Shown here one piece after another: positions 11,917 to 22,832 of a DNA stretch of 64,000 bases. The translations under genes were made by a program, and so were the position numbers. Source of the stretch: a virus (Duplodnaviria; Caudoviricetes); IMG/VR virus record IMGVR_UViG_3300027986_000001, positions 1 to 64,000 of that record, one strand, 5' to 3'. The stretch's first letter is position 1, and every line of letters begins with the position of its first letter. Under the pieces are notes generated by a model. It did no database searches. It had not been told where the DNA came from and saw nothing but the letters and a program-made list of their open reading frames with translations.

Positions 11917-12585
11917 ATGGCAACCAGCACCGCAACACCAAAGGCAGTTGTTTCAATTCCGGCCCCGAAGTTTGGGGAGGCCGAGTTCGAGATCATCGGG
12001 ACTGAGGTTTTAGTAATCCACAGGTTCTCCGCCAAAACCAAACAGCAAATGAAATCAAAGATGGAAGAAGGTAAAAGTGCGGGCAGCAAGAAGAACCGCG
12101 AGGCCACATCGACTGATGATTTGTACCAAGCGGCCCGGTACATCAGCCCTGAAGGGTGGGATGGATTTCACGCCGCATCAATCCGCAATGCAATGATAAG
12201 CGCCTGCCGCTTAGTGGGCTACAAGATGACTCTCGCAAAAATGAGCATCTTTGTTTTGGCGGACGGGCACGACGCAATCGAGCCTCAGATTCCACTGGTC
12301 CGCATCTATGGCGAGCCTAAAAAACAAGAGGACATGGCGCGCGTGGAAACCGGCCAGCCGTACGTGACGGTGCGTGCGGCGTACCATGACTGGAGCGCCA
12401 AGGTCCGCATTCGTTGGGACTCTGACCAGTTCAAGTTGGAGGATGTTAGCAATCTGCTTTCAAGAGTAGGATTGCAGGTAGGTCTATGTGAGGGCAGACC
12501 GGACTCCAAAAACTCCTGCGGTATGGGCTGGGGCCTATTCCGTATCAAGGGGAGTGAAGACAATAAATTAGAGGCAGCAGCGTGA
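11917..12585 (+). CDS. solo RAMP superfamily (Cas7/Csm3-like) protein, putative guide-RNA-binding effector
   Basis: AAGGAGG RBS; beta1 motif FEIIGTEVLVIH, GFHAASIRNAM (cf. RAMP iPgsslKGalR), C-terminal Gly-rich loop GLQVGLCEGRP...GMGWGLF; 222 aa. Confidence 0.7.
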   Translation: MATSTATPKAVVSIPAPKFGEAEFEIIGTEVLVIHRFSAKTKQQMKSKMEEGKSAGSKKNREATSTDDLYQAARYISPEGWDGFHAASIRNAMISACRLVGYKMTLAKMSIFVLADGHDAIEPQIPLVRIYGEPKKQEDMARVETGQPYVTVRAAYHDWSAKVRIRWDSDQFKLEDVSNLLSRVGLQVGLCEGRPDSKNSCGMGWGLFRIKGSEDNKLEAAA

Positions 12586-13008
12586 CAAATCCGACTATCA
12601 TCGCAGAATTGAAAAGGGTAGCCGCCGAACATGGCGGCTATCTCCGCCCGAAGGATGTTGTTAAGGCGGCCCGTGAGGAAACCTCGCCATTACACAGCCA
12701 GTTCACCTGGGATAACAATCTCGCCGCTGAAAAGTACCGCCTGCATCAAGCGCGGCAATTAATCTCGGTGGTGGTCGAGTACACGGGGCCTGAAATGAAT
12801 CAGATGAGCCGCGTGTTCGTCTCCTTGACTGAGAATCGGCGTGAGGCGGAAGGGTACATTGAAACCGCCGTCGCAATGTCTGACCCGAGAAGACGCGAAA
12901 GGCTTTTAAAAGGATGCGCTCTTAGAGCTGCGTGCGTTTCAAAAAAAGTATGCTGATCTTGAGCAGTTGGCTAAGGTTTTCGCCGCTTTGGATGACGTGG
13001 CGGCTTGA
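12582..13008 (+). CDS. small partner protein of the RAMP gene (L.P..VV.AA....SPLH..F.WD...AA..YRL.QAR.LI); 1-nt frameshift near 12908-12911
   Basis: GTGA overlap with RAMP stop; removing one A in TTTAAAAGG gives ...LLKDALLELRAFQKKYADLEQLAKVFAALDDVAA* ending 13008. Confidence 0.7.
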
Positions 13009-13632
13009 GTTCGGTTTGGTTCGGCTGGGCAGGTAGGGAGCGGCAAGGTGGGATGAGGCTCGTCCCGATCAAGGCAAGGTTCGGCAGGCGAGGGATGGTG
13101 GGTTATGTTAGGTTGCGGCGCGTAACGGGCTGTCTCGGTCGGTAGTGGGAGGCAAGGTTGGGCAGGAGCGGCCAGGGAGGGTCCGTTAAGCTGTGGAATA
13201 GCGGGGTGAGTTTTGGCAGGTGTGGCAATGAATGATCTGCCGGGGCGAGGAGGGATTTAGAGAGGTCTGGCAGGCGCGGACTTGTGTGGCAGGCATTTGG
13301 TCGGGATGGCAGCGGAATGTCCTGGAAGCGCAGGCTAGGGCTGGAATGGTCCGGGTTGGTATGGATAGGTGTTGCGGGCGATGGCAAGGAAAGGCCGGTA
13401 TGGAGGGGGCTGCAGGGGACAGGTCTGATGGGGGCAGTTGCGGCTAGGACTGGCTGGATTCGGTTTGGCGGGCCTGGACAGGATGGCCTCGGAGCGCCTG
13501 GGTCAGGCCCGGCCTGTATGTGGCGCGGCAGGCAAGGAAAGCTGGAGCTGGGTGCGTTGTTGTTGGCATGGAGTGGGAGGGCAGGCGAGGGATGGACAGG
13601 CGAGCAGTGGAATGGAAATGCAGGAGTGGAAA
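13009..13632 (+). ncRNA. main array of GGN-NN pentamer repeats, units delimited by GGCA(GG); putative guide RNAs
   Basis: 5-nt GG periodicity; GGCAGG at 13028, 13083, 13161, 13215, 13269, 13288, 13527, 13580; several units exactly 54 nt (10 pentamers + GGCA). Confidence 0.8.
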
Positions 13633-13644
13633 AAGGGAGGCGGA

Positions 13645-14460
13645 ATGAGTCCAGAACAAAACGTGAAAAAAGTTGCAATCAACACAATTAGCGTTGATCC
13701 AACGTTGCAAATCAGAGTCGATTTCGACACAGGTGTCGTCAAGGAGTACGCGGCAATCGTTGCGGACAGGGATATGGACCCTGTAACTCTCTTTGACACG
13801 GGAAAGGCGCTGCTACTTGCGGATGGAGCGCACAGAAGGGCGGCTTACATAAAGGCCGGTAAAACGGAAATCCCAGCCGTAACCGTCAAGGGCACGCACT
13901 CAGATGCACTGCGATATTCAATCCAGAAAAATTGCAGGCATGGCATCAAGGTCACGAACCAGGACAAGCGTCGAGCGGCCAGTTTGGCGGTTTTAGACGC
14001 CGATCTTGCCAAGTTGCCAGACGCGGAACTCGGAGAGCTGATCGGCGTGAGCGGCACCCTCGTTGCGGATTGCCGACGTGGAGAAACTCCAGCCGCAAAA
14101 CGCGAAAGAGCCGCAAGCAGAAAATCGAAGAACGGCCAAGGCCCGGCAGTGGTTAGCGTGACAGCGCATGAAAGGAGAAAAGTTGGCGAGACTCGACCGA
14201 CCAAGGCAATGTGCCTAAAGTCAATCGAGTCATGGACAAACGACAGCCTTGTCGATGAGGCGGATATTATTAAGCTGTTCGAGTCGGCCAAGGGCGAGTA
14301 CGTGTTCCTACCCAAAGAAGGCGGCGATTTAAAGGTCACGGTTGTCGGTAAGACGGGCCGGGCGCAGATCGCGGATATAAAAATGATCGTCAAAGACCTA
14401 AATTTTGAGGAGATCAAGCTGAAGTCGGAGAAGTTCGTGATATCAGCGGAGAAGGCATAA
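13645..14460 (+). CDS. ParB/Srx-like N-terminal domain protein with HTH
   Basis: LQIRV...V.EYA...PV.LF....LLADGAHR..A; N..HG...T..DKRRA; HTH DAELGELIGVSGTLV; GGGAGG RBS before ATG 13645. Confidence 0.8.
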   Translation: MSPEQNVKKVAINTISVDPTLQIRVDFDTGVVKEYAAIVADRDMDPVTLFDTGKALLLADGAHRRAAYIKAGKTEIPAVTVKGTHSDALRYSIQKNCRHGIKVTNQDKRRAASLAVLDADLAKLPDAELGELIGVSGTLVADCRRGETPAAKRERAASRKSKNGQGPAVVSVTAHERRKVGETRPTKAMCLKSIESWTNDSLVDEADIIKLFESAKGEYVFLPKEGGDLKVTVVGKTGRAQIADIKMIVKDLNFEEIKLKSEKFVISAEKA

Positions 14461-14476
14461 TGATTCACGGTCTCCT

Positions 14477-14554
14477 GGTGCGGCAGGCAAGGTGGGGCAA
14501 GGTAGGTTTGGGGCAGGATCGGTCCGGCGTGTAAGGGCAGGCGAGGCGCGGCAT
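14477..14554 (+). ncRNA. orphan pentamer array B (one full 10-pentamer unit 14486-14535 between GGCA delimiters)
   Basis: ggca ggcaa ggtgg ggcaa ggtag gtttg gggca ggatc ggtcc ggcgt gtaag ggca. Confidence 0.8.
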
Positions 14555-14602
14555 TCTCTTGACTTTTGCCTCGCTTGCCGTTAGCCTTGGCTTAACAAAA
14601 CT

Positions 14603-14911
14603 ATGGGGTCAACAACCAACCGATGGCAGTCGCCGGTCAGGCCGCGAGAGCTGCGCCGCATGCTGCGGGAGAAAGAGATCAAGATGGCCCCGATCCCGCC
14701 CATGCCCCCAGAGTACACGGACTACCGGCAGAAGCGTCTACGGTTTGCTGTTAGCTGTGCGGTCCTGTTCTTGAAAGGCAAAGACTACGAAGGCATAGCT
14801 CGAAAAGTCGGAATCCGGCGGTCGATCTCTAAACAAAACTTGCAACTCTATATTTCCAAGGGCGCGAAGTTTCTCATAGACAGGGGCTGTTTTATCGGGT
14901 TAAAGACATGA
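14603..14911 (+). CDS. basic protein, probable HTH DNA-binding
   Basis: GKDYEGIARKVG...SKQNLQLYISKG; promoter TTGACT 14559/TAGCCT 14582. Confidence 0.6.
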   Translation: MGSTTNRWQSPVRPRELRRMLREKEIKMAPIPPMPPEYTDYRQKRLRFAVSCAVLFLKGKDYEGIARKVGIRRSISKQNLQLYISKGAKFLIDRGCFIGLKT

Positions 14912-18814: not shown

Positions 18815-21046
18815 ATGGCGCGTGACGCCGGGATAGACGCCCTAGTCGAGTACTACGACCGCCATATTCCTGACCGCTTCGGATTCAAGCCGGAGGAGTG
18901 GGTACAGCTTCCGCAGGCGCAGCAAATCGCAATGCTAACCCCGCAGGAACGACAGGCGATATTCGAGCAAGTGCAACTCTGCAAGTCCAGCTTTGAATAC
19001 GCTGCGCGCAACTATTTCTGGTTGGTGAACAACGAATCAAAGGACCAACTCTTCAGTCTCTGGGAGAGCCAGTATCTGGTCCTAGAAACGATGCGTCGGA
19101 TTAAAGAACGCGGCAAGGCGCAGAAAATTTTCGTGATCAAGGCCCGCAGACTCGGATGTTCAACTTTGATCGAGGCCCTGATTGCCTGGAGGGCAATTTT
19201 CTTCCGCAACGTGTACGGAATCGTAATTTCAGTTGACGAGGACGATGCGGCCTACCTGTTCGGATTCATGCAGCACTTCTACGACAAACTGCCGTGGTGG
19301 ATGAAGCCGGAGATCTCGTCCCGCGAAATCAAAGGCGGTCTAATATTTGACAGAAAAGACCCAAGTTTACGTGCCGTAAATCCGGGAAATAACTCGGAGG
19401 TCAAAGTTCAGTATTCCACGCAGTTCTCTGGTGTCGGCCAGGGCCGCCGCGTAAGTGCGGCTCACATTAGCGAAATGAGTGACTACGAACAAAAGCGCGC
19501 TGAGGAGATCGTAATGGAGGATCTCACGCCAGCTATCCATCCTACGCCGGAAAACTTTGCCTTCATCGAAACAACCGGCAAGGGAACTGGCAATATGACT
19601 CACCGCCTATGGCGGGCGTCTGAAAAGTTGGCCGAACGGGCGGAATGGTATCCCTTGTTTCTTGCGTCATTCTTCGAGCACAGTCGAACGATATTCGTTC
19701 CTGATGAGTGGAAACCGCAGCGGCCAGAGTTGGCCATTCGCGAGCGAGTCCGAAAGGAATGGGTAAAGTGCAATCACTGTAATCAGTTTCAGCACGCCAT
19801 AGAAGATCGGGTGAAGATGCTGGATGCTACCTGCCCAATGTGCTTAAAGGGGAAAATGCTGGAGGTTATCCTGACCCCTGGTCAGCTTGGGTGGATGGAG
19901 GAGCGCAGGATTCAGGCCGAGGCCAACGGTCGTGAGGCGGTCAAGAAGTACAGGCAGGAATTTTCGATCTCGGCGGAGGAGAGCTTCCAGGTTAGCGGTT
20001 ATTCAGTTTTTGATGACCAGTGCTACGAGAAAGTCACGGAAACGATCGAAGACCCGGAGCATAATGCTTACGTAAAAGTCGGCCTGATTGGCAACCCAGA
20101 CGGTAAGTTCCACGGCTATAATCCCGACACCAAAAAGTGCTACGCCGAGGGCTGCACCGACGATCACCGCATGCTGTCGCCGATGGACGCGCTGTTCACG
20201 ATCTACCGCGATCCAGTTCCAGGCGCTGAATATTCTATCGGCTGCGACGTGTCCGAGGGGATCGGGGAAGACTATAGCGTTATCTTCGTGAACCGAATCG
20301 GGGGGCAGCATGCTCCGGATGAGGAGGTCGCCGTCTGGCGGGACAACTGGACCGACCCAAAGGCCGTATCGTTCTTCTGTAACGCGATTGGCCGCATGTA
20401 CAATGACGCCTTGATGGCTATCGAGTACAACCTCTACAACATTGTCGGCGACGACGTGCTGTACAAATACCAGTACCCCAATATCTACATCTGGAAAAAC
20501 AAAGAAAACCGCCACGGCGTTCTAACCCACAAATACCATTGGTGGACGAAGGCCGGGAGCAAGACGCTGCTCTACCAGACGGCGAGATCATGGCTCCGAT
20601 CCGGCGCGTGGATCATTCATTCCAAATTATTCCGCGACGAGATGACGACCTTTGTCAAAGAAGGTTTTGAGGAGAGAAACGCAAAACACGCCCAAGATCA
20701 GCACGATGATTTGCTTATGGCAGCAATGATCAGTCTCTACTGCCCCCATGAACTCGATACGCAGGAAGGCACGGGCAGAATACCTGTCCCGCAAATCGAG
20801 GACAACAATGCTCCCAAGGACTGGTTAATGCGCTGTGGTGCCTGCGGCGGGGAATGGGAGGCCGAGAGGCCGGACGTGTTTTACTCCTGCCCGCTGCCGG
20901 ATGAGGTAAATGGCGGCGTATGCGGGTCGATTCAGATCACCGGCAAGCGCAAGATTGAGCAGAGAAACGAAGTAAGGATAGACTTCCCGCCGGGGAGTGT
21001 TGAGGAAGCTGGCTCCAACGCTGAATTAAGTTGGAACCAGCTTTGA
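18815..21046 (+). CDS. terL: terminase large subunit
   Basis: Walker A VIKARRLGCST, Walker B AHISE, IETTGKG, nuclease IGCDVSEGIGEDYS, AIEYN, HDDLLMA. Confidence 0.95.
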   Translation: MARDAGIDALVEYYDRHIPDRFGFKPEEWVQLPQAQQIAMLTPQERQAIFEQVQLCKSSFEYAARNYFWLVNNESKDQLFSLWESQYLVLETMRRIKERGKAQKIFVIKARRLGCSTLIEALIAWRAIFFRNVYGIVISVDEDDAAYLFGFMQHFYDKLPWWMKPEISSREIKGGLIFDRKDPSLRAVNPGNNSEVKVQYSTQFSGVGQGRRVSAAHISEMSDYEQKRAEEIVMEDLTPAIHPTPENFAFIETTGKGTGNMTHRLWRASEKLAERAEWYPLFLASFFEHSRTIFVPDEWKPQRPELAIRERVRKEWVKCNHCNQFQHAIEDRVKMLDATCPMCLKGKMLEVILTPGQLGWMEERRIQAEANGREAVKKYRQEFSISAEESFQVSGYSVFDDQCYEKVTETIEDPEHNAYVKVGLIGNPDGKFHGYNPDTKKCYAEGCTDDHRMLSPMDALFTIYRDPVPGAEYSIGCDVSEGIGEDYSVIFVNRIGGQHAPDEEVAVWRDNWTDPKAVSFFCNAIGRMYNDALMAIEYNLYNIVGDDVLYKYQYPNIYIWKNKENRHGVLTHKYHWWTKAGSKTLLYQTARSWLRSGAWIIHSKLFRDEMTTFVKEGFEERNAKHAQDQHDDLLMAAMISLYCPHELDTQEGTGRIPVPQIEDNNAPKDWLMRCGACGGEWEAERPDVFYSCPLPDEVNGGVCGSIQITGKRKIEQRNEVRIDFPPGSVEEAGSNAELSWNQL

Positions 21047-21047
21047 G

Positions 21048-21117
21048 GGCACGAGCCATTTCGCGCCTGACCATTCCGTACTGGTCCTGTCCTACCCGCT
21101 TCGGTCCTCACCACGCC
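21048..21117 (-). ncRNA. orphan pentamer array C (14 pentamers)
   Basis: Minus strand: ggcgt ggtga ggacc gaagc gggta ggaca ggacc agtac ggaat ggtca ggcgc gaaat ggctc gtgcc; TATACT just upstream. Confidence 0.8.
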
Positions 21118-21176
21118 CGAAATCAGTATAGTACAAAACTCTTGACTTTGAGCAAAATGTTTTACATACTTCTCTC

Positions 21177-21743
21177 ATGCCAAAAACACTGATTCACACG
21201 CAAATCGAGTTGGAGTCAGAGCAGATTGAAAAGTTGACCAGTATGGTAGAAGAAGAGGCATCCGTGGCCGAGAAGGTAGGGGGGCTAGCCCAGACTGCTC
21301 TGACTGATCTAGCTAACGGCGGAATGATGTTAGAGCCAATCACGATGCGCGCTCTGGAGCAGTCCATTGGACAAGCCATCGAAGGGCAGGGCCAAATCCT
21401 TAGTTTGGTCGAGGCCGGTGCCGGTCAAGCAGACGGAAGGATGGTGCTAAAGTGGAGCATCGACCCAACGTACATGCCGCAATTGGAGGCAATGGCGACG
21501 TTCCAGGAGTGTTCGGTATTAGAACTTGCGCAGCGGACAATTGACACTTGCGTGGACCAGGGATGGGCTATCGGGGATGTGCAGCCGATGCCGGAGCGCG
21601 TGCTGATGTCCAAGGAAGACAAGTCGGCCATAGAGCAGGTGCTGGGCGGCGCGTTCACTAACGGGACAGAATTGTCCCAGCTACTCAAGGTCGCCCTCGG
21701 CATGACCTCACCCTTCACCGAGGAGCCACTGGCGGCGAAGTAG
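21177..21743 (+). CDS. hypothetical protein
   Basis: Leaderless promoter TTGACT 21142/CATACT 21165. Confidence 0.7.
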   Translation: MPKTLIHTQIELESEQIEKLTSMVEEEASVAEKVGGLAQTALTDLANGGMMLEPITMRALEQSIGQAIEGQGQILSLVEAGAGQADGRMVLKWSIDPTYMPQLEAMATFQECSVLELAQRTIDTCVDQGWAIGDVQPMPERVLMSKEDKSAIEQVLGGAFTNGTELSQLLKVALGMTSPFTEEPLAAK

Positions 21744-22139: not shown

Positions 22140-22314
22140 TGGCGTAGAGTTGTGGACCATCGAAGGTCCTCAAGGTGACCGCCTGATTTTCACGTCGGGC
22201 GGAAGATACGTCGGATTCATTACGGTAGGCTGTGATCTATCGCCGGAGGCCGTGGTCCTACTTGCGCAGCAGGGCATAGAGCAGGACTGGGACGAGATGC
22301 AGGGGGAGATCTAG
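22126..22314 (+). CDS. small hypothetical protein
   Basis: ORF track. Confidence 0.45.
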   Translation: MQLPDGVELWTIEGPQGDRLIFTSGGRYVGFITVGCDLSPEAVVLLAQQGIEQDWDEMQGEI

Positions 22315-22331
22315 CGGCCCGGTGTTGACGT

Positions 22332-22425
22332 GGCAGGAGTGGCGAGGTCAGGATAGGTTAGGTCCGGTCAGGCGCGGCGCAGGGAGGAGAGATATGGCAT
22401 GTTCCGGTCTGGCAGGGCAGGAAGG
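22332..22425 (+). ncRNA. orphan pentamer array D (15 pentamers after GGCA)
   Basis: ggca ggagt ggcga ggtca ggata ggtta ggtcc ggtca ggcgc ggcgc aggga ggaga gatat ggcat gttcc ggtct ggcag. Confidence 0.82.
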
Positions 22426-22433
22426 GAAAATGC

Positions 22434-22832
22434 GTGCCGGTATTTGAGCATCAGTGTAACTCTTGCGGAAGGGTGGCCGAGCATTATTACGGTCACCCGC
22501 CGGAGGTGAATCCGCCATGTGAGATTTGCGGCGAGCCGACAGAGCGTCTACTTAGCGCATTTAATTCCCCGTTCACCGGAATCATATCCTCCCGCTACAT
22601 CGACCGTTCGATCAAAGGCTCCGAGTCCGCTAGTGATGGGCATTGGGCTTGGGAGCGCAACACTCCAGACAAAAAGCCAAGGGCTCGGTTTATCAGTTCA
22701 TGGCAGGAGCAGCGGGACTTCTGTAAATCTGAAGGCTTAATCAACCCCCGTGAATGCGGCAATAACATCCAGCCGCGCGATGACGGCAAGGGGCTCCAGA
22801 ACTCGGTCGGGATGCCGGGGTGCGAAGTCTAG
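22434..22832 (+). CDS. FmdB-family zinc-ribbon protein
   Basis: MP.FE..C..CG...E........CEICG....RL.S. Confidence 0.8.
   Translation: MPVFEHQCNSCGRVAEHYYGHPPEVNPPCEICGEPTERLLSAFNSPFTGIISSRYIDRSIKGSESASDGHWAWERNTPDKKPRARFISSWQEQRDFCKSEGLINPRECGNNIQPRDDGKGLQNSVGMPGCEV

Follow-up and report, generated by a model that had tools for sequence, protein, structure and literature searches.

Why should a short, G-rich repeat tract lying between two phage genes spell out, in its variable letters, part of the gene that follows it? The tract in question, array B, sits in a 142-nt intergenic gap between a ParB-like gene (stop at 14460) and an ORF at 14603-14911, in an uncultured virus whose genome is complete at 99,896 bp and carries direct terminal repeats. 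The first 64 kb of this genome are referred to here as the window. A first-pass annotation had proposed that the last two bases of each pentamer are read against the first two positions of successive codons in the adjacent gene, so that a 5-nt step on the guide corresponds to a 3-nt step on the target and the wobble base is skipped. The code proposed there was correct, but it is not a previously unrecorded one: it is the "1 nt skip rule" of the VIPR systems, published in two preprints (bioRxiv 10.64898/2026.04.26.720920 and 10.64898/2026.04.26.720927).

The VIPR preprints are dated April to October 2026. VIPR is described there as a phage-borne system in which a small ancestral RAMP protein, Vipr, is encoded together with an accessory gene, vap, and with vrRNAs made of 9-16 GGY-NN repeats that have hypervariable NN and end in a structured 3' tail. 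Pairing with DNA is through the NN dinucleotides and follows the skip rule; the skipped base falls overwhelmingly at the wobble position, and no PAM is needed (10.64898/2026.04.26.720920). In the same passages natural targets were called at an NN match of at least 80%, and no guide matched its own contig so well. Structures of the filament and the triplex have been reported, and engagement and R-loop formation apparently proceed from 3' to 5' (10.64898/2026.04.26.720927). Solo vrRNAs have also been described, with a wobble alignment that bars synonymous escape and with self-match scores lower than rival-match scores (10.64898/2026.10.15.759431). Below we describe the arrays and the Vipr protein of this phage, and then weigh what guide B may be aimed at.

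Results

Repeat anatomy of array B and related tracts

Array B consists of ten in-phase pentamers, with G at the first position in all ten, GG in 8/10 and GGY in 6/10. Its third position is loose, four of the ten units being GGN and not GGY, and array A is loose in the same way. The autocorrelation of G peaks at lags 5, 10, 15 and 20 in arrays A (12990-13644), B and D (22313-22402), and nothing comparable was seen in coding DNA. Across the whole genome (99.9 kb), these three arrays, all on the plus strand, and array C (21039-21122), which is on the minus strand, rank highest for period-5 signal; all four are intergenic. From this anatomy and the genes described below, arrays A-D are vrRNAs of a VIPR system. 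Coordinates of the features are collected in Table 1.

Directly 3' of the last unit of B, RNAfold predicts a hairpin of -29.7 kcal/mol (z -3.9; 0/200 shuffles as good), and the loop of this hairpin contains CTCTTGACTTT, the -35 motif of gene 14603. Similar tail hairpins, different in sequence, follow guide C (z -3.4) and the single guide of a related contig, L121, described below (z -4.5), while D has no hairpin; the comparison of tail conservation is limited to this one relative. When the whole tract around B was folded as RNA, it was no better than shuffles (z -0.6). Scanning the surroundings of B with promoter and terminator consensus sequences found neither, and vrRNA B may derive by processing from the transcript of the ParB-like gene. 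None of the sequencing runs listed is recorded as RNA, the one holder being a DNA run from a soil metagenome and perhaps the origin of this DNA.

The motif CTCTTGACTTT occurs ten times in the window (10997-63922) against 0.9 expected, mostly just 5' of plus-strand genes; the sites include 11833 (before vipr), 14556, 21139 (before the gene matched by guide C) and 32027. It is probably the -35 region of the phage's own promoter class.

Array A spans 650 nt and is made of short in-phase blocks of 5-15 units that are split by phase shifts and have no obvious tails. Its third position is almost free (C33 T37 G25 A27 of 122). This arrangement may be the "staggered" architecture named in the available VIPR preprint text.

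Pentamer arrays of this kind are not rare among viruses. An IMG/VR scan for ten perfect GGNNN units found more than 119 viral contigs (L002-L120), with arrays up to 1.5 kb (e.g., L019:1894-2863 and L072:7605-9179) in which the third position is nearly always C or T. In some of these contigs, such as L003, the GGNNN arrays are broken by a repeated linker of ~50 nt that ends in a T-run. An Rfam scan of 11-23.5 kb returned nothing relevant, its sole match being a sub-threshold DR (E 0.7). Elsewhere in the window, at 364-515, there is a 12-nt tandem repeat with consensus GGCAGCCCCTGC (12.7 copies, 92% matches); it is close to the left end of the terminally redundant genome, a few hundred bases in, and resembles the short repeats that adjoin T7-type terminal repeats.

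Table 1 Features of the VIPR region and of the dispersed guides (window coordinates).
Feature	Coordinates	Strand	Basis
vipr, 222-aa Cas7-like RAMP (predicted fold)	11917..12585	+	AF2 model, Foldseek, PDB sequence match, phrog_4652
candidate vap (accessory gene), 124 aa	12582..12956	+	position only; phrog_15946, function not known
main vrRNA array A, ~130 GGNNN units, ~12 short in-phase blocks	12990..13644	+	period-5 autocorrelation and power
ParB-like gene	13645..14460	+	phrog_1033/3264; L121 homologue 271 aa
vrRNA B guide of ten pentamers, last two bases read	14486..14535	+	parsed sequence
vrRNA B 3' tail hairpin, 13-bp main stem (14536-14548 with 14567-14579)	14532..14583	+	RNAfold
CTCTTGACTTT, probable phage promoter -35 motif for gene 14603	14556..14566	+	motif enrichment in window
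102-aa gene, possibly a small HTH protein; own, probably partly escaped allele of the target	14603..14911	+	83% identity to P0001 of L121
self site of guide B, codons 4-13, 16/20	14612..14641	+	guide alignment
solo vrRNA C, 14 units, 14-bp tail hairpin	21048..21117	-	period-5 scan; self site 21459-21499
solo vrRNA D, 15 units	22336..22410	+	period-5 scan; self site 22476-22519

A Vipr protein and a candidate partner gene in the same phage

The ORF at 11917-12585 has, by its predicted structure, the Cas7-like fold of a small RAMP, and it is the candidate guide-loading protein, Vipr. An AlphaFold2 model built from an alignment of 35 sequences reached a pLDDT of 78.8 and a pTM of 0.75; the model from the single sequence was uninformative (pLDDT 36). 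When the former was compared with the PDB by Foldseek, the top matches were all backbone subunits of the Csm3/Cmr4/Cas7 type (best E 3e-4). By sequence, the best PDB match was the Vipr of phage SUSP1 (36pp_D), which was the sole match of the single sequence (E 1.2) and the better of two in a profile search (E 0.02). The protein has more than 3000 homologues in metagenomes, among which a Gly-rich C-terminal loop is conserved.

The first 4 nt of the candidate vap gene overlap the end of vipr. It has no Pfam relative and no meaningful PDB match, and phrog_15946 was its only assignment. As to membership in a CRISPR-Cas system, no CRISPR array was found and the neighbouring genes belong to no cas families. 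The true start of the ParB-like gene is, judging from the sequence, the ATG at 13645, which has an RBS ahead of it, and not the TTG at 13438. Because the Vipr gene, its partner gene and array A are present in the same phage, with vipr only 1.9 kb upstream, B is a dispersed solo guide and the earlier description of it as an "orphan" array does not hold in the strict sense.

The match of guide B to its own adjacent gene

Positions 4-5 of the ten pentamers agree with codon positions 1-2 at 14612-14641 in 16/20 bases. Agreement is 15/16 in the final eight codons and complete (12/12) in the final six, and all four mismatches fall within the four 5' units. On recomputation the coordinates and counts of the first-pass annotation proved exact. 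The site is in frame with the ORF 14603-14911 and begins 77 nt downstream of the guide; it is the top match of guide B on both strands of the window, where the runner-up scores 14. The units that flank the ten of B, read by eye, add no match here or on L121.

How surprising is a score of 16? When the order of the units was shuffled, 36/1000 guides reached 16 somewhere in the window, and none of 1000 did so within the adjacent gene, so that the proposed check with shuffled guides on this gene came out in favour of the match. The chance value of ~4e-5 given with the original claim ignored the choice of window, phase and scheme. In a blind scan of all guide starts against all nearby targets with the 5-to-3 scheme, 44 same-strand pairs no more than 400 nt apart scored 16/20 or higher, one of them 17/20, which is a rate of about 7e-4 per guide start. 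The per-guide probability of the self match is thus close to 1e-3, even with those choices left out of account. Because the window holds so many equally good pairs, the self match taken alone is suggestive and not decisive.

A search of IMG/VR for the exact 20/20 pattern of guide B gave 0 matches, and the 19-base pattern gave seven matches in metagenome contigs, about the number expected by a rough estimate. The two metagenome matches that reach 20/20 (L126 and L128) run antisense to a bacterial sensor kinase gene and were set aside as coincidence. No phage allele matching guide B at 20/20 was found in IMG/VR or in the metagenome contigs.

A sister phage carries a better-matching allele

The 102-aa protein has a sole homologue among 5.8 billion proteins, P0001 of L121, to which it is 83% identical. 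L121 is a 24-kb ENA contig that is syntenic with the window and shares ~71-80% nucleotide identity (about 78%) over long shared genes. Searches for further relatives of the 102-aa and ParB-like proteins, with peptide patterns in IMG/VR and with a two-sequence alignment in JGI metagenomes, found none.

The homologous site in L121 matches guide B at 19/20, a score that 0/2000 shuffles reached (null maximum 17), and this makes the match of guide B decisive. Thus the 16/20 match to the adjacent gene noticed in the first pass stands, but the guide is probably not meant for this gene. Within the footprint, the two encoded proteins differ at the 5' end: codons 4-7 read N-G-N-I in L121 and T-T-N-R here, and the following W-Q-S-P-V-R is the same in both. 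Codons 4, 5 and 7 differ at 8/9 bases, and elsewhere in the first 19 codons there are only an ATG-to-GTG start switch and four synonymous third-position changes. Over the whole gene the alleles differ at 20, 13 and 48 first, second and third codon positions, respectively. The replacements at codons 4, 5 and 7 look as though the allele has escaped the guide towards the 5' end of the site.

The gene call supplied with the genome begins at M20 (14660) and therefore excludes the guide's site. Since the remaining changes relative to L121 near the N-terminus are synonymous, the comparison supports the ATG at 14603 as the start, which would place the site of guide B inside the coding sequence. Pfam and PHROG searches assigned the 102-aa protein to no family. 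The ESM Atlas gave a weak helix-turn-helix (HTH) lead (scores 0.83-0.86), so the gene possibly encodes a small HTH protein.

L121 itself is without arrays B, C and D and has small ORFs or a 45-nt gap at those places. ORFs of 71 and 60 aa (L121:9756-9971 and L121:16575-16757) occupy the slots of B and D, and guide cassettes and small ORFs appear, from the alignment of the two genomes, to swap at the same intergenic slots. L121 also carries an IS605 OrfB/TnpB-type gene (L121:5853-6971; Pfam OrfB_IS605, Cas12f1-like_TNB), and the window has nothing equivalent at the corresponding locus.

Guides C and D, array A and the guide of L121

Guides C and D follow the same pattern as B. Guide C scores 18/28 on self and 21/28 (75%) on L121, the latter reached by 5/2000 shuffles, and guide D scores 19/30 on self and 24/30 on L121, the latter reached by 0/2000. 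For each of the three guides the self and L121 sites are homologous, all are in codon phase, and the skipped base is the wobble position. The self scores of C and D are at chance level and tied with unrelated sites. With the threshold of at least 80% NN applied to L121, B and D pass and C is just under. The statement that the rival is matched better than self depends on one relative, that is, on one comparison per guide for three guides.

The three solo guides are dispersed 1.9-10 kb from vipr, and the diverged allele that this phage itself carries is in each case 66-340 nt away from the guide; by our own arithmetic, three self sites so close to their guides would arise by random placement in 100 kb with a chance of ~5e-7. 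The matched genes are the small HTH-like gene (B), a gene after the terminase and a zinc-ribbon gene. The blocks of array A, a negative control from within the genome, gave only chance-level matches on both self and L121, and the effect seen with B, C and D is therefore not a by-product of G-rich repeats.

In place of the vipr-vap-array A block, L121 has a single guide of 13 units with a hairpin cap (L121:8786-8925), which stands behind the same promoter motif as vipr. The best match of this guide in the present genome is at 12346-12383, inside vipr and in codon phase (20/26; 10/2000 shuffles), and falls on the most conserved stretch of Vipr, the invariant ETGQPYVTVRAAY. Such a match would fit an arms race between the two lineages.

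Discussion

A guide probably aimed at a rival and kept beside a partly escaped allele

We consider it probable, at roughly three chances in four, that array B is a dispersed solo VIPR guide that silences the allele of a rival sister phage and stands beside the phage's own, partly escaped allele. In such a scheme vrRNA B would be expressed and loaded onto Vipr, which would polymerise on the repeats, hiding each GGN and presenting each NN. The filament would bind double-stranded DNA where the NN recur every three bases, with the skipped base at the wobble position. Its intended target would be codons 4-13 of the neighbouring gene's homologue in closely related, competing phages, and binding at this promoter-proximal site would block transcription. 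The phage's own allele would be protected by the three replaced codons, which break the 5' part of the match. Guide and resistant allele would be kept adjacent so that recombination in mixed infections cannot part them.

The most serious alternative is that vrRNA B tunes or times its own gene, 14603-14911, and that L121 merely keeps the ancestral sequence from which the self site has drifted. The self site is promoter-proximal, its 16/20 equals the published 80% threshold for natural targets, and its match is unbroken in the six 3'-proximal units, the end at which R-loops are reported to start; in addition, the -35 motif of gene 14603 falls in the loop of B's tail hairpin. Given this score and the perfect 3'-proximal units, some self-binding or autoregulation by guide B is possible. 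As the whole explanation, however, autoregulation seems unlikely to us. All three solo guides fit L121 better than self, and the self matches of C and D are only at chance level. The footprint of B contains three multi-base codon replacements among neighbours with synonymous changes only, a pattern that looks like escape and not drift, and the surveys in the available passages are without self matches of at least 80%.

It is also conceivable, and in our judgement improbable, that B, C and D are decaying or unused guides, left over from earlier conflicts or brought in by hitch-hiking, which are now neither expressed nor loaded. Degenerate units (GTT, GGG, GGA, GTA) and the empty promoter scan around B would agree with decay, but the phase is held over all ten units, strong tail hairpins are kept, and the guides match a living relative highly; array A is equally loose at the third position, so the looseness looks like a trait of the clade. 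We give very little weight to chance or to an element other than VIPR, such as an operator, a pac/parS-like protein-binding repeat, or G-quadruplex or R-loop DNA. The tract does adjoin a ParB-like gene and a promoter, and the equally good nearby pairs of the blind scan show how easily a score of 16 arises. Against these stand the 19/20 match on the homologue, beyond the reach of every shuffle, its replication by D and C, the presence of the Vipr gene, and a repeat anatomy identical to that of the vrRNAs in the published passages. An R-loop origin, a parS/pac site, a CsrA- or TRAP-like protein sponge and a G-quadruplex tract were each considered and dropped, given the VIPR literature and the L121 match.

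Comparison with known systems

The system resembles VIPR, whose type example is Escherichia phage SUSP1, as far as the available passages describe it: the genes are phage-borne, a small Cas7-like protein with a single RRM is encoded together with a small candidate partner gene and an extended non-coding pentamer array, the guides have 9-16 units, the target is read as NNx with the wobble base skipped, and targets lie in competing mobile elements. It also differs in several respects. The third repeat position is loose here (GGN), in contrast to the GGY of the published passages; array A breaks up into short blocks that are out of phase with one another and lack clear tails; the phage has three additional single guides away from the main locus; the tail is read as a plain hairpin, from RNAfold alone; and a self match reaches 80% here, whereas the surveys in those passages saw none.

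The solo vrRNAs described for VIPR-null SUSP1-like phages and F5 satellites (10.64898/2026.10.15.759431) are closer relatives in design. In the available text they are likewise stand-alone and wobble-aligned, with self matches lower than rival matches, which is read there as avoidance of autoimmunity, and the solo guide of L121, placed at the vipr-vap gap and aimed at vipr, recalls the VIPR-null phages. In contrast to what is described there, the solo guides here sit on a VIPR-positive phage, and they match ordinary phage genes, not vipr, vrRNAs, satellites or REP decoys. The available passages of the three VIPR preprints do not mention solo guides sited next to a resistant allele of the phage that carries them.

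An older parallel exists for this placement. The free-standing homing endonucleases of T4-like phages cause marker exclusion, each weapon being encoded beside the resistant allele of the gene it attacks, and virus-borne mini-CRISPR arrays have reportedly been described by Medvedeva and colleagues in 2019. The likeness to both lies in a weapon encoded beside a resistant allele and expected to matter in mixed infections. The difference is that no nuclease is evident here, and VIPR type II silences.

Implications for VIPR and for sibling phages

The VIPR gapped code was recovered here independently, from the raw sequence of an uncultured 100-kb soil phage that is far from the Escherichia and Pseudomonas models. 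The locus further offers a natural, nearly identical pair of targets, which match guide B at 19/20 in the rival and at 16/20 in self, the self mismatches all falling at the 5' end of the guide. The number and position of mismatches that VIPR tolerates are absent from the published work as far as its available passages go, and this pair is a ready test of both.

More speculatively, and at a probability that we regard as low, solo guides and resistant alleles might form linked "weapon plus immunity" cassettes spread across the core genome, which would silence rivals in mixed infections. A recombinant that received the guide alone would silence itself, so each cassette might behave as a selfish, drive-like unit that shapes the turnover of alleles, and the 3' self match might add mild autoregulation. 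Three solo guides, each beside its own diverged allele, suggest a rule for guide placement; if general, this placement would tie VIPR to allele exclusion between sibling phages.
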